From: Amoebophrya sp. A120
Lineage: Eukaryota; Protista; Dinoflagellata
Direction: 5' to 3'
DNA length: 64,000 nt
NCBI GenBank assembly: GCA_905178155.1
Contig: CAJINV010000010.1
Span: 2,596,466 to 2,660,465, forward strand
Of the stretch, positions 1-60,062 are shown one piece after another; the stretch's first letter is position 1, and each line of letters begins with the position of its first letter. The position numbers were made by a program, and so were the translations under genes. The notes beneath the pieces were generated by a model. That model searched no databases, had not been told where the DNA came from, and worked only from the letters and a program-made list of their open reading frames with translations.

Positions 1-747
1 AGATCATCCGCGTCACAAAGCAAAACGATCTGACTTCTGAAGAGGATATGAAGAAAGACCAAGATCAGCGCACTGCGAAGATGAACTTCCTAGCACTATT
101 ACCTCTTGCGGAGGCAAGATCATCGGTTGTTTTTTTGTCACGGACGTGTATTTAACACGAGCTTCACAATCGACCTTATCCCAATCTCGATCAGCGCTGC
201 ATGATTCTCGTGCAAAACCCTCGCAATTCAAAGATACGAAAGCTCCGCACTTTGCCAAACTTTTTCCGAAGATCGTCTTGTAGAATTTTATTTCGAGGCT
301 TTAATACAATAGTACATAGGTTTCGTACAACAGCATATGATGCCTCTTCAACGGTTCCAGTTGAACCGCTCTCGGGCTCTAGAACAGTGGAGGACTTACA
401 CAAAAGTGTTTTGTGCATGTAAATGATTTGAGGAAGTCGAAGTTTCCGGCACAGATAAAGAAAAATAATCGTACTAGACTCCTTGACCTTGTTCTTTCTC
501 ATCTGGTTGACGAAGGACGAAGGCGGCAAAAAAAAAAATGAACCGAACCGGCATGGGACCTAAAGCTTTGGCCGCCCGCTCATGATGTGTTAGAATCTCA
601 ACTGTTACGATGAAATGCAGCGCGGGACCACTACCGTTTTGGAGACAGGAGCATTTGTAGAGCATTTTCCACACCGCTCTGAATAAAATTGACGAAGCTC
701 GCCGTTCTCTAGTACTACGGCGTGAAGCACACCGGCACCGTAGCGCC

Positions 748-8158: not shown

Positions 8159-8305
8159 TGGATGCTGGAAAGGTCTTGTTGGAGTTAAAATTGACGACTT
8201 CTACCTAGGAATTACTAATACTTATTGGAGATAACAAAAACGACCCCCCCCCTTCGGTCGTGCCGCAGGCCGTTGGCCGTTTTCGTGTCGTCCTCTCGGA
8301 AGTGC

Positions 8306-9611: not shown

Positions 9612-12600
9612 ATGTCCCACCTGCTCAGCTACCTGAAAGGCCTGCGACAAGCCCACCCGACGTGGACGGCCGAGAAAATCGTGAAGAAGTGCGAGCGGGA
9701 GCTGAAACTGATGGTGCGGAGTGGTTGTCCTGGTGCTTCGAGGAACCCATCTACATCTTCACGGGCAAGTTCTCTACCTGTGGTCCCTACGTCATCCCCT
9801 ACTCCACGTAGTACCGAGCTATACCACGTAGCAGCGAGGAAAGACGGGAAGAGTTTTATTCCCAGAGATAAAGGAAAAGTAGAATCACTACAGGAAGAGG
9901 AAAGGGAACAAAGTAATAGCATGGCAGATCTTGACGACGACGACATCAGGGCTAGTACCGCTAGGGAAAATAGTACAGCCTGCTCCGCTACACGTTCAGA
10001 GGCGCGACCTGCTGGTGGCACTACTACTAACACTCCGCGGCAGCGGCAGCAGCAGCGGCATGCACATGATTGCCCCACGAAGGAAGGTGGACGAGACGAG
10101 TCGTGCTTTTATCTTTTCAAATACCTGAAACACTGCTCGGACTTCGGCGACCCCCGCGTGCGGGAGGCGCGCGGGATATGGATGTGTCAGGTTTGAAATC
10201 GTCAAAGTTGAAATAGTTTGTCATGCATAAAATGGATGCGAGTCAGAAGCCCACTTATCAAGCGGCGCATGACAAATTTTCATAGAACCGGAGTCCAGTT
10301 TGTCATGCTGTTTGGTCACAGAAGACTGCTTTTGTCATGCTACTTTAGCAGCTCTATTTCAAACCCTGAACAGGCTCACAATCGGCCTCACTTGCCTACT
10401 CTGCAAGACAGGCACTTTGTGGGTTGCATTTTATGCATCACAAACTATTTCAACTTTGACGATTTCAATCCTGACGCTTCCATACGGGATCATTTTGGAT
10501 GACACCCTGGAAAACATCGTCTGCTACCTATCAAGATGACAAGTCTGCACAGCGCCACCCTTTACTTTGTTTTAGTATGCATGGCTTCAAGCGGATGAAC
10601 AAGCGAATACAACAATAAAGAAATAGAAAATTTTTTTCGTGCTCGCTACATATTCCCAGTGGAGTTGCTACTCGACACCAGCGTTTTCAGCGTTGAAAGC
10701 TTGAAGGACTCTGGCGCTTATTTTCACTTTGATTCTGCCCGTTTGACTTTTTCCACGTGTACGGCGAGGGGCGCTGCGTTATCACACAGAAAAAAGCTGG
10801 CAGGGCATATTTGTAATGCAAAAATGAATACACAAAAGGATCTGTATTGCATATCCGAAACAGCATGCTATGGGGCCACCCATGACAAATTTTCTTGTGT
10901 ATTTATTTTTGCATTACAAAGAAGTATGCCCTGCCCGCTTTTTTCTGTGTGATATGCGTTGGGCGGGACTTGGAGACAGTCTTCCGGGCGGGTGCAGCAG
11001 GAGCAGCAGCAACTGACATGATTGAGCCAACAAGTACAATAGCGAAGAGTCGTACTCGTTTCCACCGCCCGACCGAGCTACAAGAAGTTGGGACCACCTC
11101 AGCCACAACGAAGGAAAATACTGGTACGTCTGACGATAGTGATTTAAGTGTAATGGTAGAGCACAATGGTGTAGTGCCGCGAGCAGATGATGACCACAAA
11201 CCTGGAGCTGGTTCATCGTGCTCGCAGAAGCCAAAGATGATGACGCCGGACTTGTTGTCCACCTCCACGTGGTGTCGTGCGAGTCCCGGTCGTGCCGGCA
11301 TTACGTTACGAAAAAGTTCTGTCGCGCCGGCAGCTGCTCGTGTTGAGCATCTTGGCAGTTTCGAAAAGAAGTATGACGGGTGCCTGATCAAGGTTGTCAA
11401 CGTATTGCAAGGAAAAACTTCTCCTCCCCACATTGAGAGGAGCTTATGTTTCCGAAAATTTGTGTTGCTGATTTGTGGCCACAAATCGCATTTGTCTGGC
11501 AAGAAGACAAGGGCAGAAGCTGGCGCCGCCTTATGGAAGCGATTTGCCATGCTCTTGGGCCTAGAGGGCAGCCGTTTGCAATGCTGAGCAACTAGACCCA
11601 AACGCCCCGACCTAGGCTGGGGATCTGGCCGCAATGCCTTCCCGCAATACAAAGCGCATTTGTGATGTACACAAATCCCCCCGTATTTCACCCCCAGGGG
11701 GTTGCGGACCTGGCAAAACCGATGAGTTCGGGCTGCTGACTGTTCCACCTCTTCCGAGAGCGATCATGTTACGCCTCACGCCTCACAAATCCAGCGTCAG
11801 AAATCCCGTCTCGATATGGGGAGGGGGGATTTTTCCTTACGATGCAACGTCGGCGGGCGTCGGGGCAATTCCCGGATCGACGGCCACAAGGCCAGTTTAC
11901 TCATATCCACCAACAACACGATTGACGCGGGGCGGGCCGAGGTGTTTCGTTCGGGCGGAGGACGAGGACCCCGGCAACGTTCTTGCGCCGACGAGGTCCG
12001 TCCACGTTCTGCTTCCATGAAAACGGGGCTCTGCAGCTCCGGAGCTGGGGTCGTGGAAGTAGGAACCTATAATCCTGAACGCAGGAGGTCGTGCAAAAAA
12101 GGAGATGCTTATCATACTGGTTCTCCTACTCCTGCTGGAGCAAGAAAACCAGAAGGCGAAGTAGACGCGCTCGAGCCCAAAGTAGAAGAACTACCTGAAG
12201 CGGAATCGAGACGTTGCACGACTTCTTACCTTGACTTGTTCGAAGAGGCGCTCGAGCCTTACCTGATGCGGAAACACACGACCCGCGGAAGAACGTCGAG
12301 TTTCAAAGACGGTTATTTATTCGAGCAGACCTCCCGGCCTGAGGACGAGACCGAGAGGAAGATGATGATCGAGGGGAATAAGAATTACTATTGCAGTCGA
12401 GAACAACCAGAAGCCGCCGCGGACCACGATGATTCGTTGACGACGACCGCGTGCCTGGACGAAATTTTTCCTCCGGGCTGGACCTTTCTTTTCGAGCTCT
12501 ATGCATTGCAAAAGTAACGCACTCGTAGAAATGCATTACAAATTTCCTCAGCATGAGGAAGAAATTTCTAATGCTGATTTACCTATAAGAACAAGATTTG

Positions 12601-15600
12601 TAATGCATGATTGCAATCCGAGTGCGATACTTTTCTTTGCACAGGATAAGCTGCTGCATCCAGCGATGTCCGCCACGGTGATTCCGATAGAAGAGACGCA
12701 GCTGGTTTTTCTCGGGGCGCGCCGGCACGCAGACTTTGAATTGGTCTGCCCCCGGCGGTGGATGCAGCAGGACTGGTTTGGAACATTTGGTGTTATTCCG
12801 GGGAAAATAAATCATGTCGAAAACCACACGACGGGTGGATCTGGAGCTTTCGAGGTCCGCCCGAGCCGCCCGATGTTCTCGTTTCCAACACCGCAGCAAT
12901 TCCCGGAATTTACCAGCCTCCGCCAGGCCTACGAGTTTTGTCACACCCTTTCCTGGCGGGAGGAGGGTCTGGTGTACCGCTTTGGTAACAGGTTCTGGAA
13001 GCTGCGAAACCCAAAATTCGTGTTCTTGCGGGAGGTCAAAAGTGGCGAGGTCCTCGTGTCGTGCGACGAAAGTACAAGAAGTGCGACGTCGGTGGTGCCA
13101 CTTGCGGTAACATGTACTCCTCCTGGAGGTTCTTCTTGTGGGGAGGACGAAAACGTCTACTCTTTTTCTGATATGACGACCAAAGTGGCAACACTAGGAG
13201 CCACAGCACGACCGACAAACTATAATTACGCAAGCAATCCCCTATGAACGAACAAAATACAAAAGTAGAACATTGGAAAATCTACATATCTCGACGAACC
13301 GATCAAAAATTTTCGTTCAACTACTCATCAATTTTGGTTCAGCTACTGATTAATTTTTGCCATATGACCGAAAATTTCTTGCACATGATCAAAAAATAAA
13401 ACGCACATGATCGAAAAATTTTGAGTCATGACCGAAATAGATGATGGTTCTGAGTGCAGATATTTTTGGTTCTAGGTACTTGCTCTTTTGGAAAACCGAC
13501 CTCTTCATCCTGGACACCGCGACCTCGCACCGATGAACCACAACTATTCAGATTTGTGTGTGTGGGTCACAAATCTGAATAGTTGTGGTTTACAGCAAAA
13601 CCACAACTTTTGACGGGAAACCACAACTATTCGAGTACTCCAAGGTGTTTGAGAATTGCGGAAGCGCTTTCCGCAACAAAATCGGAAGTGAAAAGAGATG
13701 AGGAAACGCATCGGACGGCATGCAGTGGCGGGGCGGAAGGTTATGTTTTTTTTCATTTTGTTTGCAAAGAAGACGGCTACTTCTGCTAAGACGGTTCCAT
13801 TGCGATCAGACTCAAGCCTAGGCGAAGGCAATGGCAAACAAAGGTGATCATGCTTTCTGATTCTGCCTTGTTTGTTTCATTATCATTTCAATATCAATGC
13901 AAAAACAATACAGAACGTCGACGTTGGAGGTGGTTGCAGTTCATGGAGATGTACGTTGAGAGGAAGCGATGCGAAAGAAAAGCAGTTCATGGAGGTGGAG
14001 TTGAACTTGGACGCGGTCGAGACTGGAGGCGCTTCGGAGGTGATCCGCCTGTTGATGCTGTAGCACCGCAACTTCGCCATCGCCGCGATGATTCAAGCCC
14101 TGACGTAGCGGGCGGCGTGAAGATGTTGCGTTGTGATACTGAGATGTCAGATGTAGACAGAAATGTGAGAAAGAGAAAAAAGATTAAGATAAACACGAAG
14201 ATAGAGATAATGATAAAGAGTCAGAGTAACTATTTCGGTATTAAGTTTAAGAAGCAGTGTGTGGAGTGAGTGCGAAAGTGCAAGCGATGTCTGAAACACT
14301 TAAAGTCTCGCCGTCCCCTGTGATAGTAGTGTGCTAGTGTCATTCTCATTCCGAGTAAAACTCTGCCTGTGAAGAAGAAGGCGCAGTTGCTGCCGAAAGA
14401 GTAAGAGTCGGTCACAACAAAATCAAAACAACAGTAATGCAAACGCAATGCTCCAAGTGCGTGCAAGTGCGCGACTGTCGTTTGAGTATGGGCATGAAGA
14501 GGACTATGAGTAATGAGTGAGAGCACAAGAAATGCGCCTGAGTCTGAACGTCGCGGATTTGTATTTTGATTTGTTTAGAATTAGAATTAGACAACTGCGC
14601 GCAGTAGTGTTCGAGTCGGAACCTGCTCTGTGCGGTTTTTGCGCTCTCGTGTTTTGGATCGATATCGAAGTCGATTTGTGGCGTTGTGCATTTCGAAATC
14701 GAATTCGAGTTGAGTTTGTGTCTCCATTTGTGAAAGAGAAAGTGACCCTGCGATGCACACGTGCCTCCCATTGCCGGGGTGATTTTGATCCGCTTCTTCA
14801 TCTTCTTTTTCATTTTCATCATCATCTTGTTCTTCTTCCGCTACTACTACAACTACTTCTACATGTGCTTGTGCATCTACTTCTACATCTAATACTATTA
14901 CAAATGGTCAACGACAATGTCAAGGCCAAGGTCATACCCATTCCCATTGCTATCGGTCCGATAGCGTTAGCGTTAGCGATTGCTATCGGTACGAAAACTA
15001 ACGAGAACGTGGACGACCAAAAGTAAATATGATTACGAGTATGACTACCACTATGGGATGATAACTATCACTGTGCTGCGTCTACCTCTGCAGCTGCGCC
15101 TGCAGTTTCAGTTGCGATTGCAACTTCATTGCCTGTTTTCATTTTCAGGAAAACAATAATAGTGAAGAGTCAAGTCGTTGTCGTAGTCGTTGTGGTGCAC
15201 TTTGTGTTATTGGTCCGAGTTTGTGGCTGTGCCCGTGCGATTGCGATTCCGCCAGATTTATTTTTTTGCACAAACGCTTTCGTTGCCACCGATGGCGGCG
15301 CCATCCTCTTCATCTTCCGCAGCTGGTCCTGCAGTTGAGCCCGCAGTAGCAATTGAACCTCCGCCCCCACCTCAGCAAACGTGCCCGATCGCAACTGCCG
15401 TCGCCAACGCGGTGAACATGGACGACGTAGTGTCCCTTTTGGAGGATGCTGAGAGTCGCTTCAGCGACCGCGGAAAGCAGGCGACTTCGCGGGAATTGAA
15501 TGAGCCAGTGCTAATCCACGAGCAGAATAGAGTGCACAACAACAGCGCAGTAGGCCGCAAAGGCTGGTGTCGACTTCCCCCGAAAAAAGCCAACCTGAGC

Positions 15601-18600
15601 AAAATGTACCAAAAGATGCACAATGAACCAGCAGGGCGAAATCCTAACCAGGAGAAGCTGCGGAAGTTTGCAGTTGCGGAATTACGGGCGCGGTTTGACG
15701 TTCCTGTGCATTTTGACCGTCTTCTCGTCGCGGCTTTGAGGAAGAAGAAAGAACTCGAAGAAGATGAGGCGGAGCGACTAGATCCGGAAAACCTTGGCGC
15801 ACCAAAAGCGAAGAGAGTAAAGGTACTGGGTAGTAGCTGTTGATATTCATACTTGCGTGTAGTTGTACTTGTAGATGTAGATGAAGATGCACTCATGATC
15901 TGGATCTCCGATTCTTATGCTCGTCATTGCAACGTCGATGCCCTCCTTACCGGATCCGGTGCTGTATGCTAATATCAGAACTCTTCAACGTCTACATCAG
16001 GTAAATAACTTCGTCGACGAGTGGGGGAACTTTTCTCTCGCGAAGCTTTCTAGCCTGAAAACTAAAGCGGAAAAATACGAGTACATCGGCTACATCTTGG
16101 CGACGTCCAGCGCAACCTCGGCGAAAAAGGTGCGAGTGCGAGATTCGCCTTTCACTACTTCTCCTACACTAGCAGTGGCCGCGGCTCCACTCCGTCGGTC
16201 TCGGTTTGTGCTTCAGCTGTAGCGCCAACATCTTCTACTTCTAGCCGCAGTTGCGTTTTCTTTTTCATTTCCTTTTTTACTATCAGATATGCATGGTCTA
16301 GGTCTTGTGCACGAAGAAGCCCTACACCAGCCTTCAGACTGCTAGGGTTTACCTGGGTGCATTTGAAAAGAGTGGTACTGTTGGCATGTGGGAATTGTCA
16401 TGGTGGTTGTAGCAGAAGTAGTTGTAGATGAAGTTGCAGTTGCAGACGCACAAGAAAATGAAAAAGCACAACGCGCGGTCCTAGGATCGTCGCCGCCTTT
16501 ATCATTATCCGGGAATAGCTTCACAACAAACAACTACGACAGATCCAGTTACTGCAGAACCTTTTCCAAATGGAGCAGCTGTTCAGCAACAAGACGCGGT
16601 ACCTTGGGTTGGATAAAGTAGCACTTTCTGGCGGAGTTGTTAACGTCGCTGACAACGTGATGACCCTGCGATCCGGTCCGGGAAGCGCGCCGGTGATGGG
16701 CCCACTACTGGGCATCAACAAAGACAAAAGAATCCAGTACACGTACGAGAAGTTGCCTTCTCCGCAAAAGCGGCGCGCACTACTGACGCTGAAGGGCAAC
16801 CTGGAGTACGAGGACGCGCGGGAGAACAAGGTGGTAGCAACGAAAAAACAACTGAACTATCAGGACGGGCTCCGGATGTTGGCGCAGCGGTTGGAGGATA
16901 AAATTCTGCGGGTGTTGAATTTACGGGACCGCTCGGACGTGGAAGCAATGGCGGGTATTTTTACATCTCTACTGGACGTTGTTGCACTTGCAGTCGCAGT
17001 TGCGGGTGTGAAAATGAACGTGAAACAAAAATGATTCCGCCACTCGTGTGGCGCTTGCAGCTTTCCATGCGGTTGAGCTAGGGCGTTTGTTGCATGACAG
17101 AAAACTTGCAATACCAATTCCAATGCGTATGCGAATGCCTATGCAAATGCAAATGCAAAACCGAAATAAACACGCAAACTTAAATCTTAATCAGACCTCG
17201 ACATCAAGCGCCAGGAGGTCGTCATGGAGATTGCAAACGACCTGGACGTCGTCCAGTTTTGGAACGCCCAGGTGAATGACAATTTGGTGAACAGGGTCGA
17301 GATGAAGCTTTCGTCGGCCGCGTACAAGCGGGCAATCGACGATGGTGCCGCGGCGGCGTCTTTGAGCTGTGCTGCTAAAACACCCCGACCAATACTGGTG
17401 ATCCGTGTCGCCCCCGACAGCACGCCGTTCAAAAACGGTTCGTCTTTCACGTTGGAGGCGATTATCTACAAGTGCTGCCCGGTCACGAAGCAGATCCATC
17501 TCAAGCACATCGTGCCGTCGGCGAAGTCGCACAGTGGAGGTGCGTACACCACCATCGCCGACATCTATGAACTCCTCGCTACTGTTTGCCCTTTGCCGGG
17601 CTGCACCACGGCGGCGTGGGAATCCGACCCACTGTGCATCATGGTGTGCACGAGTGACGCTGCTGCCGACGTGCTGGCCGGCTTTCGCAGTCTCCGCCGG
17701 ATGAACTACGTGCTCCAGCTGAAACGCCAAGAGCAGATCAAAAATAAAAAGAGGAAAAAATACGTGGAGTTTCATTTTTGTCAACAGGTGTGTCAACTCC
17801 ACCAATATCACATATTGACCGGCGAAATCGTCGAACAGATAAAACACGACTTCCCCTCCTTCCTGGAAGGTATCAACAGCATCCAGAGGTCGATGCACCT
17901 CTGGGGACCAAAAGATAAAAACGCGCACAACTACGTCAACATCCCGAAGGCGGCGACGCACCGGTGGATGACCTTGTACCCGACGCTCGAATGTTTAGCG
18001 GCAAACAGAATCGCGATCACCAGAAACATCGAACAAATCGACGCGATGAAGCGTGAGGAGGGGGAAATGAGGGAGACGTGCAAAAAAGCGAAGCTGCACG
18101 TCGCCGACGAAAGGTTCTGGCGAGTAGTAACGGCTGCGCGCTGTGTGATGCAGGTCGTACACGAGGCCTCCGTTAAAGTACAGAACGACCCGGACGTTGT
18201 CATGAGCGACGCGACTTTGCCGAGCATGTTCCCGCACCGACCGCGCGCGAAGACCGTGGACGAAATCCTGGACTTGATCCGCCAGCGGATGTATCTCGGT
18301 GATGGCGATCCCCTGCAGGCCCGCCTGCTCTTGTACCTCGCAGTGAGACTTCCGTCGCGGGAGATCCAGTTCCACTGCTATCCCTGGATGTTGACGCCCC
18401 TCTTCTCGCCGGACGAAAACCAGCGCAAGGTCCACGCGGAAATGTTGCTCGCAACCGAGCCGGATAACAGAGACTCGTTCATCAACTTGCTCTGCACGGG
18501 AGTGTACCAAGAGTCGCTCCAGAAGATGGTTAACGGTGAGGTGATGCCGCCGGAGTTGTTCGCCGTGCTGGGGCCGGTTTACGTGGCGATGATTCCCCAA

Positions 18601-21600
18601 ACGCAGTTCACCGAAAGTTTACACTCTTCGACGGCGATAGAGAAAAAGGTGGCGCCGAATATCGGCGTTGTGCGTGCTGGACTTCGTGTTGCTCGCAATC
18701 GGGGTGACCACATCCAGTACGAGGAGTTTAAGGAGCTGCAGGAACAGTGGAAGTCGCGGTTCGACATGCGGCGGAAATCTGCGAAGGAGTACGACAAGAC
18801 GGAGCTGGAGGAGCTGGTTAGTTACGACACAGAATTTTTGCATCCGTGGCTCTCAAAGTTGTATGATGTTTTCGACGAGTACTTGTTGAGCAACCCGTTG
18901 TTTCCGGAAAAAGTAGAAACGGCGCAGCTACAGAAGATAATCTCCGGCCCCATACCGCCGAACAACAAGCTCGTCGTCCCGCCGGTGGTGCTGCGACACC
19001 TTGCAGAATACTCCACTCCGCTACCGATTTGGAAGCCGGGGCGGCCGGTCAACCTCTTCAAGGAGAAAGCAGTTTATGTCGGATTCCTCATCTGGCGGGA
19101 ACCGGAAAAGAACCAGTTCATTACGGTGCCGGACGTGTACTACTGCGTTTCGCAAGAAGGAAAGCTGAAAGGGCACGTATTGCGGTGCCGGCAGATTCTC
19201 CAACCGGACTTTGACGAGGGCATGACGTTCAGGAGAAACTTCGAGCAAAAACACCAGCCCGATTATCCGAAAGGAAGAACGCAGTGGTGGTGCTGCAGTC
19301 CGTACGACCGCGTCCGCACGTTGTCGCAGTGGGTACTGGACCCGAAGCCCAGCAGGGAGCGTTACTTGTTTCGCTTCAAGATCGCGTGCGTGACGGGTTG
19401 CAGGTGGTGGGAGGACAAGCACACGGTGCTGAAAAGCGGCATCCTCTTCAGCATTCGGGACGACGAGTGGCTTTCCACGACCCTGTCTTACTCCAAGCTG
19501 TTTGTGCCGGCGGCGGAGAAAGCGCGATCAGAGGAGGTGATCGTGCAGGGACCCAATGCGAAGGTCGCGGTGCGAACCACGCGCGAGGTGTCGTGGTTCG
19601 GGTTTGACCAACGCAAAGCGGTGCCGGAAAAAACGATGTCCGACGCGATCGACCCTGTGTACTTCATCTTCCGACCGGAGAAGTCCAACTGGGTCGCTAC
19701 GATTCCGCTAAAGAGATCTACGGGTGAAGCGTCGGCGGAGCGGAAGTCGTACTCTGCTACCACCGCCGGGCATCTGCAGAGTCAGGACTTAGTGATGGCC
19801 GCGCGGCACGAGTGCGTTAAGCTGGTCTGTGGTCACTTGAAGGAGCCCCAGCCAGTGCCAGACCAGGACCAGGAGGATGAAGCCTACGCGGAGCTGTCGA
19901 AGTACATCGACGCCACCAAAGACGTGGACTTCTATGAGTCGCTGGGCGTTGACAAAGAGCAGTACAGCGACAACTCCGACTCCGAGCCGGAGTAAAACAC
20001 TTCTTCCCGTAGCAGTAACATCTTCGCCGCGTCCGCAGTGTCGTATCTTCCTCATCTTCGCCTCGACGAAGAGCACAGACCAGTAGGCACGTGCCGTCGA
20101 AAACATCAAACAACAACAAGAGTCACGGAGGTGCATGTTTTTATTTGTATACTTTACTTCGGAGCGGGTGCAGGTAAGAATAGTCTCACCGCAGTGGAAG
20201 CTGCGCACTTTTTGATAATTATGTATCACATGCTGCTGTAAGTTAAAACTAATCAGAAAGTTAAAGTTTCGATACACACTACTAAAACACGACGCGAGTG
20301 CGTCCATAGGAATGTAAAAATGCACAGCTTTTTATGGTCTTCGCATACGCGTGCACGTGCGTGCGCGCGCGCAAGACGAATTACTTCGAATGCAATAGGT
20401 CAACACGCATCTTCGTTGTTTTGTTTCAGCCAAAAATTGACATTGAGGGGAAAGACGCAGTCTAGTCTTCGCCGTAGCATAGAACTTTATTTGTATGATA
20501 GCGTGCACAGCAAGAGCAGTACGAGATGAGCACTTTTTTCAGGTTACACCAGGCTGCGAGCGAGGACGCCCGACTCTGGCATCGCTGGTGCCGACAGAAA
20601 AACAAGCGCGATCGCGATAGCAAGTGACTGCGATAATTATGATTCTATTTGAAAGTAGTGTAATTCTTGCATCCCGTACAGATTAGCGCAGCAGTATACG
20701 AGACAGAAAGAGCTGAGACGAGCTTAACAATTTGAGTATCTGTGTAGGCGGTTGGGTGATAGAAGTTACGCACAACGTGCGTGTACGCAAGTAGCTTGTA
20801 AATGCCCCAGCGATAGAGAAATTGAAAGATGTACCCAGTTCCCCCTGCCCTTGTAAATCCCGAAATCACCAAAAAGATCTGGCTATTTTCCCACCCGATA
20901 CAGAATTGACGCGTAGTAGTTTCTAGTGCGACGGCCCGCAGTTTCTTATCACATCGTAGAGGAAAGTTGTACGTAGGCACTACCCCAGAACACACGAAGC
21001 CCACGAATTTTGTACCCGAAGATCATTGTAAAACGTCCGTCAAGACACGAAAATCATGTACCGAAATGCAGAAAATTCAGAGGTCGACTCTCATATTTGA
21101 AATGAAGAAGCAGCCGCGAAGAGCCTTCAGATCCTGAGAATGACGCGAGATTTTGACCGAGCCTTGTGAGGTCTGAGCCGAAAATGCACAAGAAAATGAG
21201 AAGACGACGACCAAAAATTCTTGCTCAATTAGAAGATCATCATCGGTTCGCGGCGCTGTAAATAGCGCTCTCGGTCTTGAAATTTTGTCTCACATGTCGA
21301 CGATTTTCCTTCAAAATACGACGTTCCAAAAGTTGGGATTTCTGGTTCCTAGAGATTCAACTGTGATTTTTCATCAAAAACCCAGAAATGTAGAAAAAGT
21401 CCTAGGACTTTTTCTACATTTCGCACTTTTTCATGATTTTTGCAAGGTCAAAGTCTAGGAACCAGAAATCCCAACTTTTGGAGCGTCCATTTTTACTTCT
21501 GAATTTTGTGATTTCTATCCAATTTGCGTCATCTATCCAACCAAAAAACACAGTTGTACAGGGAGAAAACTTAAGGCTGAGTTGAAAAAAAAACCGCGTT

Positions 21601-24600
21601 TTGAAGATGAGTTCGTCCGAATCTCTGCTGCATTTCCTCGATGAGGAAGAGGCCGTTCTGGCTCTCGAGGCCCTGCCCACCGCGATCGAGAAGGCCAAAA
21701 CCGGTGCCCCGGACGACGTCATCGCGCTGTGCGACGCCATGAAAAAGGTCCTTCCGACGAAGGAAGAGGTCGCCGCGGTGCTCAAGGCGTGGCGCGCCGG
21801 AAAACTGACCAAGGTAATCATATATAGCTTTTACGAAGTGAAAAAATAGGAACGTTTCTACTTTTTTATAAAACATCTTGATCATACGAAGCAACATCAC
21901 GGCTTGTATAATAGGAGTGTTTTTGTTTTTTTATGAAAAGCAGAACATAGAAAGGTCGTATCTCACTAACAAATCAATACTTGAAAACTGTGTCAATCAC
22001 CTCTACAGGCCGACATGATGCAGTTCTGTCAGAGATTCGTCGATAGACGATTTAAACAGGGAGCGACGTTACTCCTCTCGGTGCTCAACCGTTTTGGACA
22101 ATCGAAACTCAACCCCCTCCGCTCCTTGGCGCACATGCACAAGCTGTTGGGGTACATGGAATCCGGTGAATACGTCGTCGTCCGCGGTATATTCCGTAGT
22201 TTAGAACAAGCAAAGATTTTACTATATATCGCAGCTTAGAGCAAGAAAAATTTTTACTTTTTTCCTAGCGCGCTGTGCCGCGGAGCCGTCTTTCGTAGAA
22301 TAAAAGCGGACCACTTCCCCCCCCCCGTTCGTGTACAATGCCCACCCTCCCACTCGAAAATAGGTAGCATCAACGTCATTTGCAGTGCTGCGGCTTACTT
22401 TCTTGCCAAGTGGGAACTGCACGCCTTTCGCTTGCGTGCAAACAGGTCCGACACATGGCCACACTACTACCCAAACGAAAGGAAGAACTACCTCGCGCAA
22501 AAAAAAGCGCTGAAAAAGCGGGTGAGTGAGGCCTTGTGCACTTTGTTGCACCGCTACCCGCCCGGGTATGCAAAGGCAGTAGTGCAAGCAATTAGCAACC
22601 CCGACAACAAGCCCTGGTACGAATGCCCGCACATCCCTGCCTGCCTCGCTGCTACACACCCTAGCGAAGTCGCCCCCGGAGAACGCGCAATGATTTTTCG
22701 CTCCTGGGCCAATGACAAGTTCAAGTTGCGGCGCGCATTTAACGCGCCGATAATCAAGCACAACAGCCGACCCCTGGCTGAGATGAGGGACGAAGATGAG
22801 GATTCAGACTGGGACTCATCACCTCCTATTTGTGTTGTTGAGTGCCGACAACCAGAACATCATCTACGATTCAAAAAAGATATTATCGCCATTGCCGTCG
22901 ATCCCACGGCCCCGGATGGTAAGCTGTCCCTCGCCGCGGAGCAGGAAGTTTTCTACGAAGTGATTTCCGGGTATCACTCCACCCGGGCCGCCCAGGAGCT
23001 CGTGAAGCGCGAGGACGGTTCCAACAAGTTCGAGCGGATGCGCATGCGGTATTTCTTACTACTGGTTTCTGTTTTACATACAAGTACAAATTCACTCGCG
23101 CCACAAGTCGTATCTCGCAGCCGCATCTCCATGTGCACAAGATTGAAGTTTTCAGAAATAGTTTAAGATCGCAGTCGAAGAAGATTTTGTATGTTTTCAC
23201 TCCGTGGAAAGAATGCTCGTGTCTTTTTCTCTTCAGAAATTCCGCTCATGAGGCCGAAACCTGAAGACGAACTGCAGCACACTAAAGCATGACCACGAGT
23301 ACAACCACGACGTATACACAACTATAACGAAATCGAAAGCAAAAGCTTTGGTGAAACGGAGCCACACATTTCATCTCAGGTACACCATCTACAGCTCCGA
23401 GTTCGCCAAGTACGAGGACTTATGCAGAATCTTTATCAGGCTCTGCAACGAGAGTAACTCGACTTTGACAACCACACATGTTGAAAAACTGTTGGTTGTT
23501 TTTCCCCAAGTATTAGACCCGCCCAGTTGGGTATTTTATGTTTTTACTGATGGCTCTGGTGATACAGATACTCATACTGATAGTCGTCGTGATAGAGATG
23601 ATGATGGCGCTTACGGTGGCGATGCGTCTTGCGTCATTTTCTAAATTTAAAAAGAAGAAGATCGTGATCGTGGGTGTCAGTGTCACTACTTCTTGTCACA
23701 GCTTCACCTTCTCCGCAGCCTCGACCTGGTATGCATAGTCTCGCTGGAGATAATGCATCAAGGTGGTCAAGCAAGCATGGCCTGAGAGCTGCATGATTGT
23801 TGTCAAAGCAGTGCCGGACCTATGTAGGTGTCCGATTAGACTCCTTCGCGGAGTATGGCTCGTCACTAGGTGCGGCGGACACGACCTCTTTCCTTCGGGA
23901 GTGAAGGTCATTCGCGCAGTTCGGACCTTCTTTTCGAATGCCTCATACGCAAAGCTGAAAACTCGGTCCTTTGCCGCTTTGCCCTGTGCCCGAAGAGTTT
24001 GAAGTCGCTCGACGATAAAGTCCTTCGTGGCTTTAACGGGCTGGATGGGGACCCACTTCAATGTGCCGCGCCCGCCGCTGTTCTGCGCTAATTTAGTATT
24101 GCCGATGCGGATCTGCGTTGTTTGGATGTCCTCCAGGTTGAGGCACCTCACATCCATTCCACGCCGCCCGGTTAGGCAGGCAAGAATCCACGCGAACCGG
24201 TACTGCTTACCGGCTTCGGTTTTCCTGCCGGTGCTTTTCTCCAAGTGCAGCCCAAATCTGCGGCAGTCCGGCATGGTCATGGACCCACTCCGCTCCTCCG
24301 CGTCGACAATGTTGTTCTTTCTGGTTTTAGGAGCTTTGCTCTTCTGCGCCCCCAATCGCGCCTTGCTTTTTGATGTCACCTTAGGACGCGCCTTCATTGC
24401 TACTTTCTTTGTTCCGCTGCGTGCGGGCTTTGTACGTCGCTTTCCCTTTGGCATGATCGCTTCGTGACAGAGGATGGTGGAGGGGACGTTCTGTGATGTG
24501 TTTTAAATTTATTTCATGACACAGAGACGCCTTTTTTTTTCACATATTGAGCTCGCAGCGACATGAAGATGTTTCTCAAAACAACATGACAGCTGCACCG

Positions 24601-27600
24601 GGAATGGGTCAAACACAACAAGGAAAACGCCGACGCCCGTGTGGACCTGTACGAGTTCTTCAGCGTATAATATCTACCATCATTGTTTATGTTTTTTTTT
24701 TCCTACACCAGATTAGCACTAGTGTGAGCCTGGGTATATTGTTGGAAGTACTCAGATCGTTATCGTAGTCGTTTTTATATTTAAATTTAAATTTAAATTT
24801 ATTACAACTTCATGTTCATGCTCATGCTCATGGTCATGCTCATCTACAATTACTCGCAGGCCAACGTCGACAACATTGCGAACAAAAGCGAAGTGGAAAT
24901 TTACCTGCAGTGCTGGAGAGAGTTCGCCTCCGGTGGCACCCACGAGTGGGCCGAGGTCTGCAGGAACAAAGGTGTCGAGGACGACGAGTCGAAGTACCCC
25001 AACCTCTACCGGTACGACATAACTACTTGATGCGATGAAATGACTACCAAGACAGAGCAATTCTGTGTGGACAAAACTAGAAAGTAAATTCGACGGTAGT
25101 GGAAGTGGAAGTGTTATGTCTAGCGGAAGTGTCATGTCTAGCTTTAACTTTCTGGTCGCTGTCGGATGAGTTGTTCAGTTTTAGTTGCAAGAGAAAAGAC
25201 TTATACTTAATCTCAAACTATTTCTATCAATATTCCAGGACGAAGGTCCTCGATAGTGGTCTGAAGTACCAGCTCCCGGTCATCAAGGACGGCACGTTGT
25301 ACTGCGTCATGAGCTTGGTCTTGGGCGAGAACAAGATCGGGTTGTCGAAGAAGCAGGTCAAGCTGCTGATGCACCTGTGCCAGTTGAACATGTCGCGCCG
25401 CTTGGACTGTGCCGATGAAAGAAACAAGATGGTTTTGCACTTGATCGTTGAGACCGCCCGCAACGCCGCGCGGGACATCGATCACGAAGGGCAAGTGGGT
25501 GCGACCGTGTCGGTATAAGAATACTACTTGCGATTTTGAGTCGATCGCCATGTCTACTTAGCGTCCTCATGCATGGAGCGTTTTTATCTATCACAATTAT
25601 AGACCAGACGATGACCAAGACCACCACCATGATATTACTATTTGAATTGGCATTTGCGTATTTATATTTTTATCTATCACAGACCATCGAGAGCAAGAAC
25701 GACCTCGTGACGGCGATGCGCCCCGTGGATGCCGGATTGTTGTGCGACCAGCCGTGGTTGTTTTTGGCGGAGGACATTCAGTTGGAAAAGCGGCGCAAGA
25801 TCGTGTTGAATGACATTTTGCGGGTCATCAAATTCGACATGAAGATGTTCGGCTGCGACAACTGCGGTGTGTGGACGGTCGTCCAAAAGAGCATCCCCGT
25901 CCGTATTGATTTGTTTTTTGACGTTCATGTTCATGAGTAGCACTTTGTGTTTTTAGATTTAGTTTGCGCAATTCATGAAGTCTGATTTCGCAAGACGACA
26001 TGTGCATGAAACAACGTAAAAAAACAGAGCCGATCGCCAATTTGGCCCCCAAGCACCACGTGATCGTGGACAGCAACCACTTTGATGAGCCCCAGCGTGG
26101 CGTCATCGAGAAGTCCGTGGCCGGCCCGCAGGTCGCCAAGAAGAAGCAGCAGATGCAGTCCGTGACCGAAGAGCAGATCCAGTGGGACAAGGATATTAAG
26201 GAGGAGATGCGGTCCGCAATCAAGGCGTCCATCGCGGCCGAGAAGGCCCGGCACCAGTCGGCCAAGAAGATCGACAAGACGGATCAGCTGCAGCTGGTGG
26301 AAGCTTCCGGTAAGGGAAAGGAAAAGTTTGTCTCCAAGATGGAGCGCCGGCAGAAGTGGTATAGTGATCGCATCGACACGCTGACCTCGGAGTTGAAAAG
26401 CGCGGAGGAAGAGAAGTTTTTCTTGACTACCCTCCTGCAGCGGAAGCTGTCGGTACTGAGTTTCACACTTGATTATGAGATGATGATGATAGGTCGAAAA
26501 TCTGTGTTCTAGATCTAAACCATGAGATATTCATATTGCTTTTTTAAAGAATAAGAAAGATCAGTTGTTCCTGCAGCTTCAACTTCAACTTCGAAACGCA
26601 AACGTATCTTCAGATCCCGGCCGAAATCATCTCGATCGATGTGCCCCACTACGCCTGGGAAGACACGGACATGGACTTTGAGCACGACAACACCATGGTG
26701 GTGTCGGTGGAGGATATCGAGAAGATGGCCGTGGTCCCGGGTCGCTTTCCGGTCGAGATCGAGTGGGGTCCGAACCGCGTGGTGATGGACGACTTGGAGT
26801 ACGACAACGACCCCGGTCAGTACTGCGACTTCATGTCGGACATCGTGTTGGAGTGGAAGCCGGCCAGGTCGATTTCGACCCCGGTCACGTTCAGGGGAAG
26901 GGAGCTCGATGCGGGGGGATATGTCATCAAGTACAAGATGCCCTGCTACACGCCCCCCCCGAAGGACGATGATGAGCCCTCCCAGTCCGCCTCCGACGAC
27001 ACCAAGGGTAAGAAGAAGAAGTCCAAGAAGAAGAAGTTGTCCAAGAAGAACCAGGCTGCGTTCAAGTTGATCGAGAGCGGCAACTTTGGTTTCGGCCAGG
27101 ACAACAAAGCGGCGTCCCAGGACTTCAATGCGGCCTACGAAGAGATGTCGGAGGAGGTGTTCGAGGAGGAGTTGAACAAGGACCGCACGTCGTCCTCCGC
27201 GGCTGCGTCGTCCTCCGCCAACACCAACATGCAGACCGGCGGTTCTAGCTCTTCTTCGTCGAAGCCGAACGTCAACGTGAAGGGCAAGGCGAACCCGAAG
27301 GCCAAGTCGATGAAGAGCATGAAGTCCATGAAGTCCGCCAAGCGCGAGAAGCTGCTGCCGTCCGACGACGAGGGTGAGGACGACAATGCCACCTCGTCGA
27401 AGCACAAGGGAAAGCGATCCCGTGGTGACAGTCTGATCGATGAGGACGACTTGTAATGTTAATGTAACTTTACTAGTACTACTTGATTATGTTGATGAGA
27501 AGGTGATCTTCAACTTTTTCAGAAATTAATGCATGCTGATGAACGCTGCAACTGCAAAAAAATCTACTGCTACTTCTACTTACTCTTACACAAAACTGAT

Positions 27601-30600
27601 GCTACTAAATGGACTAGATGTGCGGTATTTTTCTTGCGTGAAGCATGTGTTTGTCTTCATGCGACACAACGCGAAATTTTGTCTATGTCTTCGCGCGCAC
27701 GATTTTCGAGTCACTGCTTTCGCATTCCGCAAAGTCAGCGACGAGAAGCTACTACGACGGCGAAGTTTGGCAAGATAAATTATGGAATTACTACAACAAC
27801 AACAGGACAGCTCGAAAGCCAGTAGATCTTCGGTCGCTGTCTTAGTCATGTCATATTCAACGACCTATACTAATATCTAAGAAAGAGCCTCTGCTATTTC
27901 TTGCGCCTTCCGGAGCGTTGTTGATTGTGCCTTGACTTAGACCTGTGCCGAGTTCTAAAGCTATCTCCCATGCTTGACTCGAAGCCAGGCGCAACTTCGC
28001 ATTGGCTACATGATACGCTCTCACCGCGGTGCTATGATTTCCTAGTCTTTTTTGTTGTGCAAATAGCTTCGGTCTTGCAACTTTTACTTTCGTACTTGTT
28101 GATGTTGTCTTTCAACATCATCAAGAACAATATAAGTATTATGAATTTCGTATAGAAGTTGAAATCAACAAGTACTGATAGAGCTGGGCACGTAAAATTT
28201 AGATCTTTCTTTTTTTGTTTCGCACTACCTATCGGAATATCAATTTGTTTTCTATCAAGAAATACTTCATCTCTTTGTGCTCAGCTCGACCTTTATCCTG
28301 CTCTATCGTCGACGCCACTCTAGATCATGTCTAGTGATGGTGTTGGCAAAATAACTAGAACTTCACTTTATTGCTGCTTGTCTGTGTCGACGACGTAGAT
28401 GTTTCGCAGCAAAAACGTTTTTACGGAACGGTCACTGTATCATCTGCAAACGATTTCGTAAATCTCTGCAGAGGTGGAGCTGCGCACGCGCAACCACCAC
28501 GGCGGGCAAGAGTTTGAGTCAGCAGAAATTTTTCGTGACTTGTCTATCCGATATATGGGAAAATAAAATGGCACTTTCAATATATCAATATGAATATCTA
28601 TATTCGAAGTTTGTTTTAATTTTATTTTTATTGTTACTTCTACATTATGTTCTTGTTAATGATAATGATATCACATTCACTGTTCTAAACCTCTACGGAG
28701 GCGATTCCACTGTCGATGCATTTTTATGCGGTGCCGAAGTGCGCTGCATAGCCAACCAATCCGAAGCTGTCGGACTAAACGTGTATGTAAAAATCTTTTT
28801 TACTTTCACCTAGGTCTTGGCAGTTTCAAACACTTGTTTTCAGGAGAAGTTGAGGAAGATCGATTGTTGATTTGTGCGTAGAAACGGCGCTGCACCAGAG
28901 GAAACCGCGGACACAGAGAGAGCGCGCTTGCACTTGTTACGACTGAGCTTCCACATCAAAGAAACTTTTGTTGATTCAACTTTCTCGATTCATCGCTGAC
29001 GATGAGAACAACTTCTTTCCCATAGACACTAGCGGATGCGCGTCCGCACCTTCGCGTTGGTCTCGCCCAGTATCGTAGAAGTTGTATCATATAGATATAC
29101 GTGCGTGGCGCACATCCACATGATAAAGCTCTCGGTTGTTGTTTTCCTAATGACATGCAAGTATTGCAATTTCGGTCAATTGTCCTCAAAAAGGTCAAAA
29201 GTTGTGGTTTTGCTGTAAACCACAACTATTCAGATTTGTGACCCACACACACAAATCTGAATAGTTGTGGTTCATCGGTGCGAGGTCGCGGTGTCCAGGA
29301 TGAAGAGGTCGGAACGTCCAGAATGAAGAGGTCGGTTTCCAAAAATATCTGTACTCAGAACCAAAAATATTTGTACCTAGAACCATCATTTTTTTTCGGT
29401 CATGATCAAAATTTTTCGATCATGTGCAAAATATTTTTTGATCATGTGCAAGAAATTTTCGGTCATATGGCAAAAATTGATGAGCAGTTGAACGAAAATT
29501 TTTCATCGGTTCGTCGAGATATGTAGATTTTCCAATGTTCTACTTTTGTATTTTGTTCGTTCATACAATCCCCGTCCCGGCGCACCAACAGGCGAAACAG
29601 CTTTTTCTGCCAATGTTTTATCCACGATGAATCTGCGTGAGCCCCCCGATATCCCAGCAAAGTACATCGAAGCGGTCAACCAGAAAACCAAGACCGCACG
29701 TATGACCCGGTCAGACGTTACAATCTCAAACGTTACAATAGAAGCTGGATTTTGTATTGCATGATGAGAATGACAGATTCGGCCAGCATTCCTCTTTCTG
29801 CAATACAAATTTTGCCAGATTGTAGTGCGGTTTGGGACTCCGGAACTTGTCATGCGCAATCCTATGGGACGCGGACGTGGCTAGATAATGCACTTCTTGC
29901 ATCACAGATTTCCATATTCTATTGTAACGCTTGAGATTGTAAGCCTGAGCAGGTTTTTATAGCACGGCAGCGACAGGTGGCAAGAAGTCTGCTTTCCCTT
30001 ATCCCGATGAAAAAAGCTAGGATGCTTCTACTGTGATACGTGTCTGTGTGTGAAAATACATATATAATGGTGGTCTGAAAGTCTCTAGTAGAAGTGATGT
30101 GGGACGGCAAGACCATTCGCGTGGAAGATTTTTAAGTACAAGCGTCAGCTTGTTTGTTTGTTATGTGCGCCCTCACACGACACATTTTTATTTGAATGTG
30201 ACGTGGTAGTTTTTTCCATTGTGATAGTCTTCGCGCTCGACGAAGACTGGCGGGGCGTTGCCGCCTATCAAGCGGAAAGAAAACATGGTCCCTGTTATTT
30301 CCCCAGCCGACCTGTCATGCAAGTTTGCAGGCTTAGTACGTAGAAAGTGCGGCATGGGCTGGCACATCGACGGCATTCTTGTCTAGGCTTGGCTGTGAAG
30401 AATTCGTCTTCAGCCACCTTGCACAACATAATATTTTCTGGCATGTTGGCGAAGCGACTTTGATTTGTTCTGCATCATGTAAACCAGGTTGCTTTTCTTG
30501 CTACCCACAAGAAAACTCTGTTGCGGCATATAATTGCACAGATTTCATTTTCTCCTTTTGTCTAGTACTTTGGGGCGAGGACCACGTTTTTGCAGAGGAT

Positions 30601-31585
30601 GTCGTGCGGTTCCCCCAGATCGGTCCGGCGCTTCAGGATTTGGGTCTTGGGGACCACAGTATGTAGTTGTCTATTGCTTGGCGGATCCTCAGAGGTTTTT
30701 ATTGTGGCTGGCGCGCGGCTGTGCCGGAACTCGCCATGATGCGGGAGGTTGTTTATATCACTTGGTCAAGGGGGAAGGCGTAGGACCTTTCGCGCGGGTT
30801 GTGCTTACAGGGCGCGCGCTAGTGCGCTAGTAGAGTGGCTTCCTTCTGTGTGAAGGCTTTCCTTTTTCGGGTATTCACATACACTGCTCCTGCTCGAGTA
30901 ACAGATGTTCGTGCTTCGCGCATTGGTCGGCAAGGTATGGGCTACGTGCGCTCGGCACGGCGATTCAGGGACCCGGAGATAACGAGGTGTAGGCGCTGTT
31001 GGAAGCGAGGTTGTTCTGCCACTGGGTATGCTGTGCGGGTTGGATTCGGTCGGTTGCCTGTCTTCCCTTGGGGGCAAGTGGGGCTGGGGCTGGCGCTGTT
31101 CCCCCCATTCAACCACCGGAGGTGGGGTTCTGGGGGGTCTTGCCCTTGGGGCCAGGTGGTGGTGGAGTGGGTCGCTCCCCGCTATGGAAGCTAGGCCCGG
31201 CCTGCTACGCCCAGCCCCTTCAGGCTCGATCCAACGGGCCGCTTGGGTGTTGGCTCTGTCTGAATAACACTCGGAAGGAACGCAGCGAAAATATTTTCTC
31301 CTTTTCTCTCATATGGGGCGGGGACCACGTTACGTTTTTACGGAGGATGCCGTCCGCTTCCCCCAGAAAGGTCCAACGCTGCAGAAATTGCGACGGCAAC
31401 TTATCGAACTAGTGAAAACTGCCTCTACAACCCCCAGAACTTCTTTGAAGACGCTTGTATTGAAAAAGGTCCCAACAATAATTCCGATAGATCAAACAAC
31501 GCCCATCTCGCACCTTTTTCCAGAAACACGACAAATAATTCGCCCTGCAGAACAGCTAAAATTTGCGTTGCAAAATTGCATTTAG
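9612..31585 (+). CDS. T4 Rnl1-like RNA ligase (covalent nucleotidyltransferase), multi-exon, interrupted by the 16-kb transposon
   Basis: Spliced reading gives LFKY..SDFGDPRVREARGIILD..IVCYPFDFFHVYGE, motif I FEKKYDGCLIKV (about 11370), LLISTNNTIDA, WTFLFELLHP, LVFLGAR, motif IV REEGLVY and motif V FWKLRNPKF. Resumes in frame at 29574 and ends ...LQNCI* at 31585 (3' exons less certain). Confidence 0.8.
10177..10484. mobile_element. Introner, family E (long TIR, about 58 bp)
   Basis: TATGGATGTGTCAGGTTTGAAATCGTCAAAGTTGAAATAGTTTG and its inverse; direct repeat CGGGA; joins EARG|IILD. Confidence 0.9.
10529..10734. mobile_element. Degenerate introner
   Basis: TATCAAGATGA / TCACTTTGATT; direct repeat CTACC/CTGCC; removal restores the ligase motif VCY|PFDFF. 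Confidence 0.7.
10780..10954. mobile_element. Introner, family D (TATCACACAGAAAAAAGCTGG TIR)
   Basis: Direct repeat TGCGT; related to 38222-38392. Confidence 0.9.
11403..11844. mobile_element. Introner, family C (AAGGAAAAATCCCCCCTCCCCATATC TIR)
   Basis: Direct repeat CAACG; joins KVVN|VGGR; body similar to 45840-46159 with an extra internal segment. Confidence 0.85.
12500..12648. mobile_element. Introner (short family)
   Basis: TATGCATTGCAAAAG / CTTTGCACAGGATA; direct repeat AGCTC/AGCTG; joins FLFEL|LHP. Confidence 0.85.
13243..13614 (+). repeat. Left TIR (372 bp) with 21-23 bp subrepeats and internal hairpin 13536-13590
   Basis: Inverse match to 29194-29565; ATGAYCRAAA units repeat at about 22 bp; perfect 23-bp stem AACCACAACTATTCAGATTTGTG with a 9-nt loop. 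Confidence 0.93.
15292..19995 (+). CDS. hAT-like DDE transposase, multi-exon with GT-AG introns; main exon 17195-19995
   Basis: Motifs in order: IRVAPDSTP (D1), VCTSDAAADV (D2), CQLH (CxxH), ATHRWMT (RW), TQFTESLHS (E). Intron 16955-17194 is phase-compatible; upstream exons are less certain. The 8-bp TSD fits hAT. Confidence 0.75.
21320..21487. repeat. 168-bp palindrome at the exact centre of the transposon
   Basis: Perfect 38-bp core GAAATGTAGAAAAAGTCCT|AGGACTTTTTCTACATTTC (21385-21422), plus 34-bp outer arms (21320-21353 and 21454-21487, 1 mismatch) on the same axis. Confidence 0.95.
21607..27456 (+). CDS. Large multi-exon protein with ParB/Sulfiredoxin-like domain and Lys-rich C-terminal tail
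   Basis: IIAIAVDP...FYEVISGYHSTRAAQEL resembles the ParB-N/Srx yeiidGhHRxxA motif, followed by LCNESNSTLTTTHVEK. Downstream GT-AG junctions are phase-compatible through to the stop at 27456. The junction near 22190-22446 is unresolved. Confidence 0.6.
23696..24454 (-). CDS. Tyrosine recombinase (phage integrase/Xer catalytic domain) with basic N-terminal tail
   Basis: Catalytic set present: LTGRRGMDV (R), NTK (K), SHTPRRS (HxxR), LSGH (H), LMHYL (Y); single intact 252-aa ORF. Confidence 0.88.
   Translation of the reverse strand: MPKGKRRTKPARSGTKKVAMKARPKVTSKSKARLGAQKSKAPKTRKNNIVDAEERSGSMTMPDCRRFGLHLEKSTGRKTEAGKQYRFAWILACLTGRRGMDVRCLNLEDIQTTQIRIGNTKLAQNSGGRGTLKWVPIQPVKATKDFIVERLQTLRAQGKAAKDRVFSFAYEAFEKKVRTARMTFTPEGKRSCPPHLVTSHTPRRSLIGHLHRSGTALTTIMQLSGHACLTTLMHYLQRDYAYQVEAAEKVKL
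29194..29565 (-). repeat. Right TIR (372 bp) with hairpin 29218-29272
   Basis: Reverse complement of 13243-13614, with offsetting 22/23-bp unit differences. Confidence 0.93.
29701..29961. mobile_element. Introner, family F (GTTACAATCTCAA TIR)
   Basis: TATGACC..TTACAATCTCAAACGTTACAATAGAA and its inverse; direct repeat GCACG. Confidence 0.8.
30000..30226. mobile_element. Degenerate introner
   Basis: TATCCCGATGAAAAAAGCTA / TAGTTTTTTCCATTGTGATA; direct repeat poorly preserved; joins LLSL|ALDEDW. Confidence 0.55.
30266..31349. mobile_element. Degenerate introner with two alternative right ends (30601 and 31349)
   Basis: Left end TATCAAGCGGAAAGAAAACATGGTCC; right end GGACCACGTT..TTT..GAGGATG occurs twice; direct repeat CCGCC/CCGTC at the distal end. 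Confidence 0.55.
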
Positions 31586-59685: not shown

Positions 59686-59783
59686 GGTTCCTCTCCTGCC
59701 CCGGCAGATCAAATACAATCTGAGGACCAGTTTTTGCTGGGTCCCGAGGGCCAGGCGAGCCCCCCAGCGGGTCCGACGATACT

Positions 59784-60062
59784 TATCCTGAGTAAAAACG
59801 TACCCACACCAGAGTCAAGATGGGGATTTTGCAACACAAACCTAGGAGTTTTGGGACTCACGCATGACAAGTTTCTGTTTGTAAGGTAGTGCAAGTTAGT
59901 AAGGGAAGCCGCATCACAAATCGACCTGCTGATCCTGTTCACAGCATCACAAATTCCAAAACACGATTGGAAATGGGTCTCATCGGGATGCGCATTACAA
60001 ATGTCTTTGTCATTGCAAATCTGCATTACAACTCTGGGGTGGGTACGTTTTTACTCAGGATA
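59784..60062. mobile_element. Introner, family B (copy duplicated with its flanks from 57561)
   Basis: Same sequence and ATACT direct repeat as 57561-57839. Confidence 0.9.

Follow-up and report, generated by a model that had tools for sequence, protein, structure and literature searches.

The locus and the inserted element

The region analysed here, hereafter the window, is a stretch of 64,000 nt of contig CAJINV010000010.1 of Amoebophrya sp. A120, which is dense in small inverted-repeat elements and contains, on its forward strand at 13243..29565, a 16,323-bp DNA transposon with terminal inverted repeats (TIRs), read by us as hAT-like, within an exon of a gene that likely encodes an RNA ligase. 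This 16-kb element is absent from the assembled transcripts of its host gene. For this organism, Farhat et al. 2021 (PMC7789003) report that more than 60% of introns are non-canonical, that the introner repeats start with TAT and have direct repeats of 3-5 nt, and that U1 was not detected. Their intron analysis was limited to 40-1000 bp, and the splice position relative to the hairpin was described as variable; the longest A120 intron listed in the public annotation measures 35,152 bp.

The element is delimited by two identical copies (8/8 matches) of an 8-bp target-site duplication (TSD), CAATCCCC, at 13235..13242 on the left and 29566..29573 on the right, and this sequence occurs nowhere else in the window. 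Between them lie the left TIR (13243..13614, plus strand), which begins with TATG, and the right TIR (29194..29565, minus strand), which ends with CATA; each measures about 372 bp, their outermost 60 nt are identical and the overall identity amounts to 83% over 395 columns. A scan of the window for TA[TC]...[AG]TA elements longer than 1.2 kb with a perfect 8-bp TSD returned this element as the sole case. A TSD of 5 bp was considered for it and rejected, as only 1/5 positions match at that length. An earlier note on this DNA had described a 16-kb insertion within the RNA ligase gene at 13235..29700; the element does lie between exons of that gene and the ligase label finds moderate support, the limits being those given above.

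Four of eleven sequencing runs were compared with 11700-31650, one of them DNA-like (X1), two RNA-like and from one sample (X3 and X4), and one of raw RNA reads under the same species label (X9), of which 0 reads mapped here, so that it is uninformative. The X1 depth over the element interior (36-47) is like that of the unique flanking contigs (44-46), so that the element is single copy at this likeness, and one X1 contig runs continuously from 12588 to 13398 through the left junction with no branching there. Metagenome scans yielded no second copy of the element, with the transposase open reading frame (ORF) as query (159 pattern matches, 0 confirmed), and no empty allele, with the public A120 protein CAD7961824.1 (P0001, 100% identical to the query exon; 40 pattern matches, 0 confirmed); Rfam families gave 0 matches over 13000-30000. 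None of the 37 small introners retained in our counts lies inside the element, where about 12.7 would be expected by length, which suggests that the element is a recent arrival. Of 43 candidates, these 37 were left once a duplicate, three rows that overlapped others or were weak, and two weak AT-rich rows had been discarded, the AT-rich pair (27854-28582 and 28151-28602) lying inside the element.

The host gene is read on the plus strand. Its upstream exons (10959-11401, 11849-12498 and 12653-13241) carry Rnl1-like motifs I, III, IV and V, the 5' start not being fixed, and its downstream exons (29570-29699, 29966-29998, 30231-30264, 31354-31400 and 31753-32183) come from mapping P0001 to the window, RNA contigs joining only the first of these. 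P0001 itself starts at 12666 and is hence without the upstream exons bearing motif I. The KYDG motif can be read directly in the gene, with the nucleotidyltransferase motifs I, III, IIIa, IV and V in order. Using a profile of nine phage Rnl1 proteins, the spliced host model came out best of 1041 sequences (16.6 bits, E 1.5e-4), the best of 500 shuffles reaching 1.9 bits, with motifs III and IV-V aligned; hhalign of the model against Rnl1 returned E 2.7e-4 with a probability of 41%. Searches with single exons or P0001 gave no match in Pfam, PHROG, PDB or Atlas, the Atlas query being residues 1-125 of P0001, and a single-sequence structure model of the ligase had a predicted local distance difference test score (pLDDT) of 37. 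We regard the gene as likely to encode a T4 Rnl1-like RNA ligase, with moderate support, the insertion being placed about 75 codons past motif V in a low-complexity linker. The gene also appears to reach about 9575-10530 (region 9566-13241), where a REARGI-like Rnl1 N-terminal motif is seen.

The transcript junction across the element

The junction coordinates were taken from the table of contig pieces. X3 record 8 maps to 12100-12494, 12649-13241 and 29570-29695, its record positions being contiguous with 0 other letters, and X4 record 14 maps to 12756-13241 and 29570-29695, again with no gap and no other letters; the depths of these contigs are 5.5 (X3) and 8.8 (X4). The join is thus 13241 to 29570 or, with one base of ambiguity, equivalently 13242 to 29571, and the 16,328 nt skipped correspond to the element plus 5 nt. 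As spliced, the giant non-canonical intron spans 13242..29569 (plus strand, 16,328 nt), the register 13243-29570 yielding an identical mRNA, and its ends in the two registers read CT..AT or TA..TC, with no GT-AG. The small TAT...ATA introner at 12500-12648 is missing from the same X3 contig, where it was likewise removed as element plus 5 nt.

The mRNA has seven C's at the junction, while the pre-insertion site would have four; the three extra bases kept result in the protein sequence NYASNPPRPG, with one additional Pro. The earlier note had removed the element together with one TSD copy, which on paper does give NYASNP/RPGAPT; the actual mRNA loses the element and 5 nt instead, and a probe built on the four-C junction predicted there would miss the real one. 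Since a seven-C junction corresponds to neither the filled nor the empty allele, the caveat that the frame is restored on paper does not apply, and the difference from an empty-site junction speaks against both a template switch and an allele lacking the element; a transcript from an empty allele would need four C's and was rejected. P0001 has the sequence NYASNPPRPGAPT, and its exons flank the element left and right, with the same junction and extra Pro; as the RNA behind this model may be that of X3 and X4, we have not counted it as independent.

Depth in X3 and X4 is found in 11 of 30 bins, mostly host exons, and is zero in most element bins. The values in the TIR-edge bins (1.74 and 0.93 for X3, 2.77 and 1.48 for X4) are what the spanning contigs alone yield, so that no assembled RNA enters the TIRs, and over the transposase ORF the X3 and X4 contigs show nothing beyond one short partial match. 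Neither transcripts ending in the left TIR nor a silent gene, which the earlier note had named as refuting its reading, was encountered. Read without splicing, the frame stops at 13247, as had been stated; the downstream stop had been put at 31585, a position which lies inside a further introner (31402-31748) spliced out in the public model, whose stop is at 32183.

A constant loss of element plus 5 nt

We have examined 21 junctions from two genes, that of P0001 and that of P0027, the A120 protein of a second gene in the window, two of them at the nucleotide level from RNA contigs and 19 at the amino-acid level from public models. All 21 lose the element plus 5 nt: the giant, introner 12500-12648, the four downstream junctions of P0001 (introners 29701-29961, 30000-30226, 30266-31349 and 31402-31748, each so removed in the public model) and all 15 of P0027, for 6 of which the element end was placed by assuming the 5-nt excess and then found to fall on ATA. 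This removal holds for lengths from 149 to 16,323 nt, for TSDs of 5 or 8 bp and for TSDs decayed to 2/5, which indicates that the paired TIR ends are likely the reference points for splicing, independently of length and TSD. The small introners conceal the cut site in their 5-bp repeat, and it is an 8-bp repeat that discriminates a cut at the repeat from one set by a constant spacing to the stem; as the giant with its 8-bp TSD still loses 5 nt in excess, the spacing to the stem and not the repeat would set the cut.

Defining k as the number of bases upstream of the opening TAT that leave with the intron, k=1 fits 21/21 junctions, k=0 18/21 and k=2 15/21; the junction 35210/35652 permits k=1 only and the giant permits k=0 or k=1. 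With k=1 the introns take the form N-TAT...ATA-NNNN, their first two letters always being N-T, and the 21 introns display 19 different end pairs, one of them GT-AG. Applied to seven introns of the host gene, k=1 gives a single frame that stays open for 784 codons, starting at 10961 and closed by the stop at 32183. The nine predominant non-canonical site types of A120 in Table S4 of Farhat 2021 (PMC7789003) all begin with N-T (9/9), as k=1 predicts. Two introners have an altered terminal triplet, 11403-11844 (ending ...GATG), whose removal fits the open frame, and 37499-37808 (starting TAC...), which is removed as element plus 5 nt in the public model; the exact TAT and ATA letters are therefore not strictly required.

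The TSD of the small introners is 5 bp: over 37 elements the mean identity is 0.92 at this length and does not exceed 0.33 at 4 bp or at 6-9 bp. The likeness of ends on which the earlier note relied is consequently partial: the giant shares the end letters TATG...CATA and, at positions 12-15 of its end, the near-invariant A letters of introner ends, whereas its target duplication differs (8 bp, with a 1/5 match at 5 bp) and its end fits the introner profile weakly, 4/74 small ends scoring as low and 76/1345 other TAT sites as high. In view of this low score, convergence, a chance fit with survival of a tolerated insertion, and common ancestry are all possible.

One of the host introners, 30266-31349 (1,084 bp), ends with GATG instead of GATA, contains its own 3' end together with the next exon a second time in diverged form (about 30580-30650), and is partly covered by X3 and X4 contigs at depth 3-11; it may often be retained, or may be a repeat that is expressed elsewhere.

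Genes carried by the element

The transposase gene is placed at 15187..19995 on the plus strand, its last exon being the ORF 17191-19995 (934 codons free of stops), with upstream exons and start approximated from protein matches. It has D76, D156, the CxxH motif at 201-204 (C201, H204), R258W259 and E475, and the C, H, R and W of the CxxH and RW motifs are invariant in an 11-row alignment. In a representative library the ORF has 21 relatives at E<=0.001; of nine looked up, eight are proteins of Amoebophrya AT5 and one is a JGI/IMG cluster including an AT5 member. Sequence searches of Pfam, PHROG and PDB returned no match for the ORF, and its relatives are also unnamed by Pfam. A structure model of the first 570 codons, obtained from the 11-row alignment (pLDDT 64.5), was compared by Foldseek, all 11 matches at E<=0.001 being the Hermes transposase, and in a wide structure search Hermes was again on top (Z 11.8, root-mean-square deviation 5.7, 312 aligned; next-best 8.0), at a sequence identity of about 10%. 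To our knowledge, the other DDE superfamilies with an insertion domain have no solved structures. The Hermes-like model, the D-D-CxxH-RW-E motifs and the 8-bp TSD with TIRs lead us to read the element as hAT-like, and it would thus work in the manner of a hAT. AT5 gene models (P0002-P0008 and P0011) include at least eight members of this Hermes-like transposase family, all without annotation, and in some of them the second gene is fused to the transposase.

The second gene or genes, multi-exon and with no assigned function, occupy about 21607..27456 on the plus strand, with apparent GT-AG introns read by eye. Two AT5 proteins, P0024 and P0003, match it at 22012-22191, 23405-23509, 25683-25889 and 26650-26973 (E 2e-5 to 8e-3), and both carry the transposase as well. 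One exon presumably resembles ParB, judging from its motif, and sequence search gave no match. A single-exon tyrosine recombinase with all of the motifs R, K, HxxR, H and Y is found at 23696..24457 on the minus strand (PF00589, E 8.7e-7, above cut-off; PHROG integrase, E 3.7e-10). It is probably nested antisense within an intron of the second gene, and may have come as cargo or be a Crypton-like element nested there. Scans of the element ORFs against Pfam (8 besides the recombinase) and PHROG (7), which took in only part of the short exons, returned no match to Polinton- or virus-like genes, namely protein-primed polymerase, capsid and retroviral integrase. In the sequence searches a weak Vibrio phage match (E 0.6), to a hypothetical protein without a Pfam family, was set aside. 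Between the two same-strand genes there is a near-palindrome of 182 nt (21313-21494; 91-nt arms, 78%, no spacer), at which X1 contigs break.

Interpretation and alternative explanations

This 16.3-kb hAT-like transposon, with its 8-bp TSD in an exon of what is likely an RNA ligase gene, is missing from the assembled transcripts. We consider it highly probable that this is due to the non-canonical splicing of the host, which would read its paired TIRs as it does those of small TAT...ATA introners. The suggestion that the introner machinery also removes the 16-kb element, made in the earlier note, agrees with the spanning RNA-like contigs, with the loss of introner 12500-12648 in the same contig and with the depth at the TIR edges. 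In the sequence of events that we propose, the join of 13241 to 29570 seen in the mature RNA is one instance of a removal that, over the 21 junctions, takes the element and 5 nt however long the element or decayed the TSD. The intersection of the allowed registers would put one cut 1 nt upstream of the opening TAT and the other 4 nt downstream of the closing ATA, and pairing of the TIRs in the pre-mRNA would bring the ends together, making the length irrelevant. With a 5-bp TSD such removal restores the exon exactly, and with an 8-bp TSD it leaves 3 nt and so adds one codon, here the extra Pro in the linker after the ligase motifs, the frame being kept. The chemistry might be carried out by a U1-less spliceosome or by a nuclease-ligase pair, both being candidates; the host RNA ligase was considered as the joiner of these exons and set aside, there being no supporting evidence here. 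The pre-mRNA would have to traverse the same-strand genes of the element, for which the long co-oriented gene blocks of the A120 genome (PMC7789003) may help.

A number of points weigh against this explanation. There is a single giant element (n = 1), and the depth of the assembled junction contigs is low (5.5 and 8.8). The RNA nature of X3 and X4 rests on an automated guess and on their exon-only pattern; they are assembled contigs, raw junction reads not being part of the data, and since contigs drop rare variants, neither splicing efficiency nor rare DNA excision alleles can be read from them. P0001 may share their RNA source. In respect to the register, only three junctions exclude k=0, and 19/21 constraints are at the amino-acid level from public models. 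Also, the weak fit of the giant's end to the introner profile is unfavourable.

Excision of the DNA in some cells or at some life stage, leaving a 3-bp footprint in the alleles from which the transcripts derive, appears to us very unlikely, although the open transposase ORF with its catalytic residues and the perfect TSD imply that the element could be mobile and rare alleles would be dropped by contigs: the footprint would have to match by chance the rule followed by the 20 other junctions, the X1 contig is unbranched at the left junction, the transposase ORF has only that short partial match in X3/X4, and a majority of unexcised alleles should give RNA contigs entering the TIRs, of which there are none. 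Even less likely is real splicing through ordinary or cryptic spliceosomal dinucleotides, or splicing guided by the direct repeat instead of the stem. A120 does retain most spliceosomal proteins and 30-35% GT-AG introns (PMC7789003); however, the possible ends of the giant and the diversity of end pairs at k=1 do not point to such dinucleotides, and the 5 nt in excess are lost even by introners with TSDs decayed to 2/5 and by the giant, whose match at 5 bp is 1/5. Least likely of all is a reverse-transcriptase jump, in unspliced pre-mRNA, where the hairpin of the 370-bp TIRs closes, a known type of cDNA artefact for which both ends could form a long perfect stem, as the 8-bp direct repeat would be the expected switch site and give four C's while the observed join is ambiguous by one base, the small introner is removed by the same rule in the same contig, and unspliced TIR RNA was not assembled.

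Beyond splicing of the giant from its paired TIRs, a more general reading is possible, although we hold it as rather doubtful: splicing that measures hairpins and is blind to length would make its cuts 1 nt upstream and 4 nt downstream of any TAT...ATA stem, autonomous hATs of giant size with cargo would exploit it by landing in coding exons almost free of cost, as a 5- or 8-bp TSD keeps the frame, and a related, unrecognised hAT lineage would mobilise the tens of thousands of introners. hAT groups with a 5-bp TSD do exist (hAT5; PMC12730594), and a related transposase could therefore mobilise introners, nothing here showing such mobilisation.

Comparison with known systems

The closest counterparts are the non-canonical introns of A120 itself (PMC7789003), which share TAT-starting inverted repeats and the lack of GT-AG, with removal evidenced by RNA-seq. 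Unlike these, which are short, repeated, without transposase genes and with a 3-5-nt direct repeat, the giant is 16.3 kb long, has an 8-bp TSD and single-copy depth, and carries a transposase and two more genes; moreover, the splice position described as variable there resolves here to a register of 1 + 4 nt. With the hAT elements Hermes and Ac it has in common the TIRs, the 8-bp TSD usual for hATs (PMC12730594), the RNase H fold with a helical insertion and the D-D-CxxH-RW-E residues, and it differs in its about 10% identity to Hermes, lack of a Pfam match, 370-bp TIRs starting with TATG, 16-kb length, second gene and tyrosine recombinase. Autonomous introners (Gozashti et al. 2025, PMC12130899) are comparable in that coding transposons serve as introns (switchgrass Copia, TIR elements in several species, and the ORF-bearing A120 family 38); in the accessible main text, though, hATs do not occur, and neither a multi-gene element this large nor a fixed, stem-measured cut that leaves a scar of 3 nt is described. 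In the nonconventional introns of euglenids (PMC11282704), of up to several kb, a TIR-derived hairpin also pairs the ends, without conserved dinucleotides and by an unknown mechanism; they belong to another lineage, have CAG/CTG at +4..6/-8..-6 and include no transposase-coding example in the text accessible.

Maize Ds and dSpm are likewise exonic TIR transposons removed from pre-mRNA with a small scar. They differ from the giant in that their removal is imprecise and relies on GT-AG sites lying within the element or close to it. AT5 and the Karlodinium parasite have canonical introns (PMC12005148); as AT5 has relatives of the transposase, the transposon family also occurs where this splicing system is absent.

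About 60% of Amoebophrya introns lack GT-AG ends and are removed without a detected U1; the present locus provides a testable cut rule, a system tolerating a 16-kb insert with whole genes, and a case in which a full transposon can turn at once into a near-neutral intron. Farhat et al. 2021 (PMC7789003) reported two putative transposases in A25 and none in A120, and argued from this against a transposase-driven spread of introners; a transposase family is now present in A120. The public annotation already contained the junction silently, and small non-canonical introns of A120 were known; what sets the present case apart is the giant transposase-coding intron, its 8-bp TSD and the 1 + 4 nt register. 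In a literature search largely without subscription journals we found no account of an Amoebophrya non-canonical intron that is giant or encodes a transposase, and none of a cut register that is fixed, although Dataset S2 of PMC12130899 and the figures of PMC7789003 may bear on this; the accessible portions of PMC11453091, PMC12621601 and PMC6004678 held nothing specific to the question.

Other features of the window

Two 300-nt copies with 100% identity lie 2,223 nt apart at 57501-57800 and 59724-60023, each comprising an introner, its exon flanks and the same TSD; they would reflect either a recent tandem duplication or a duplication in the assembly. At 4340-8160 there is a leucine-rich-repeat-like gene with several introners having 5-bp TSDs and, as read by eye, some GT-AG introns.

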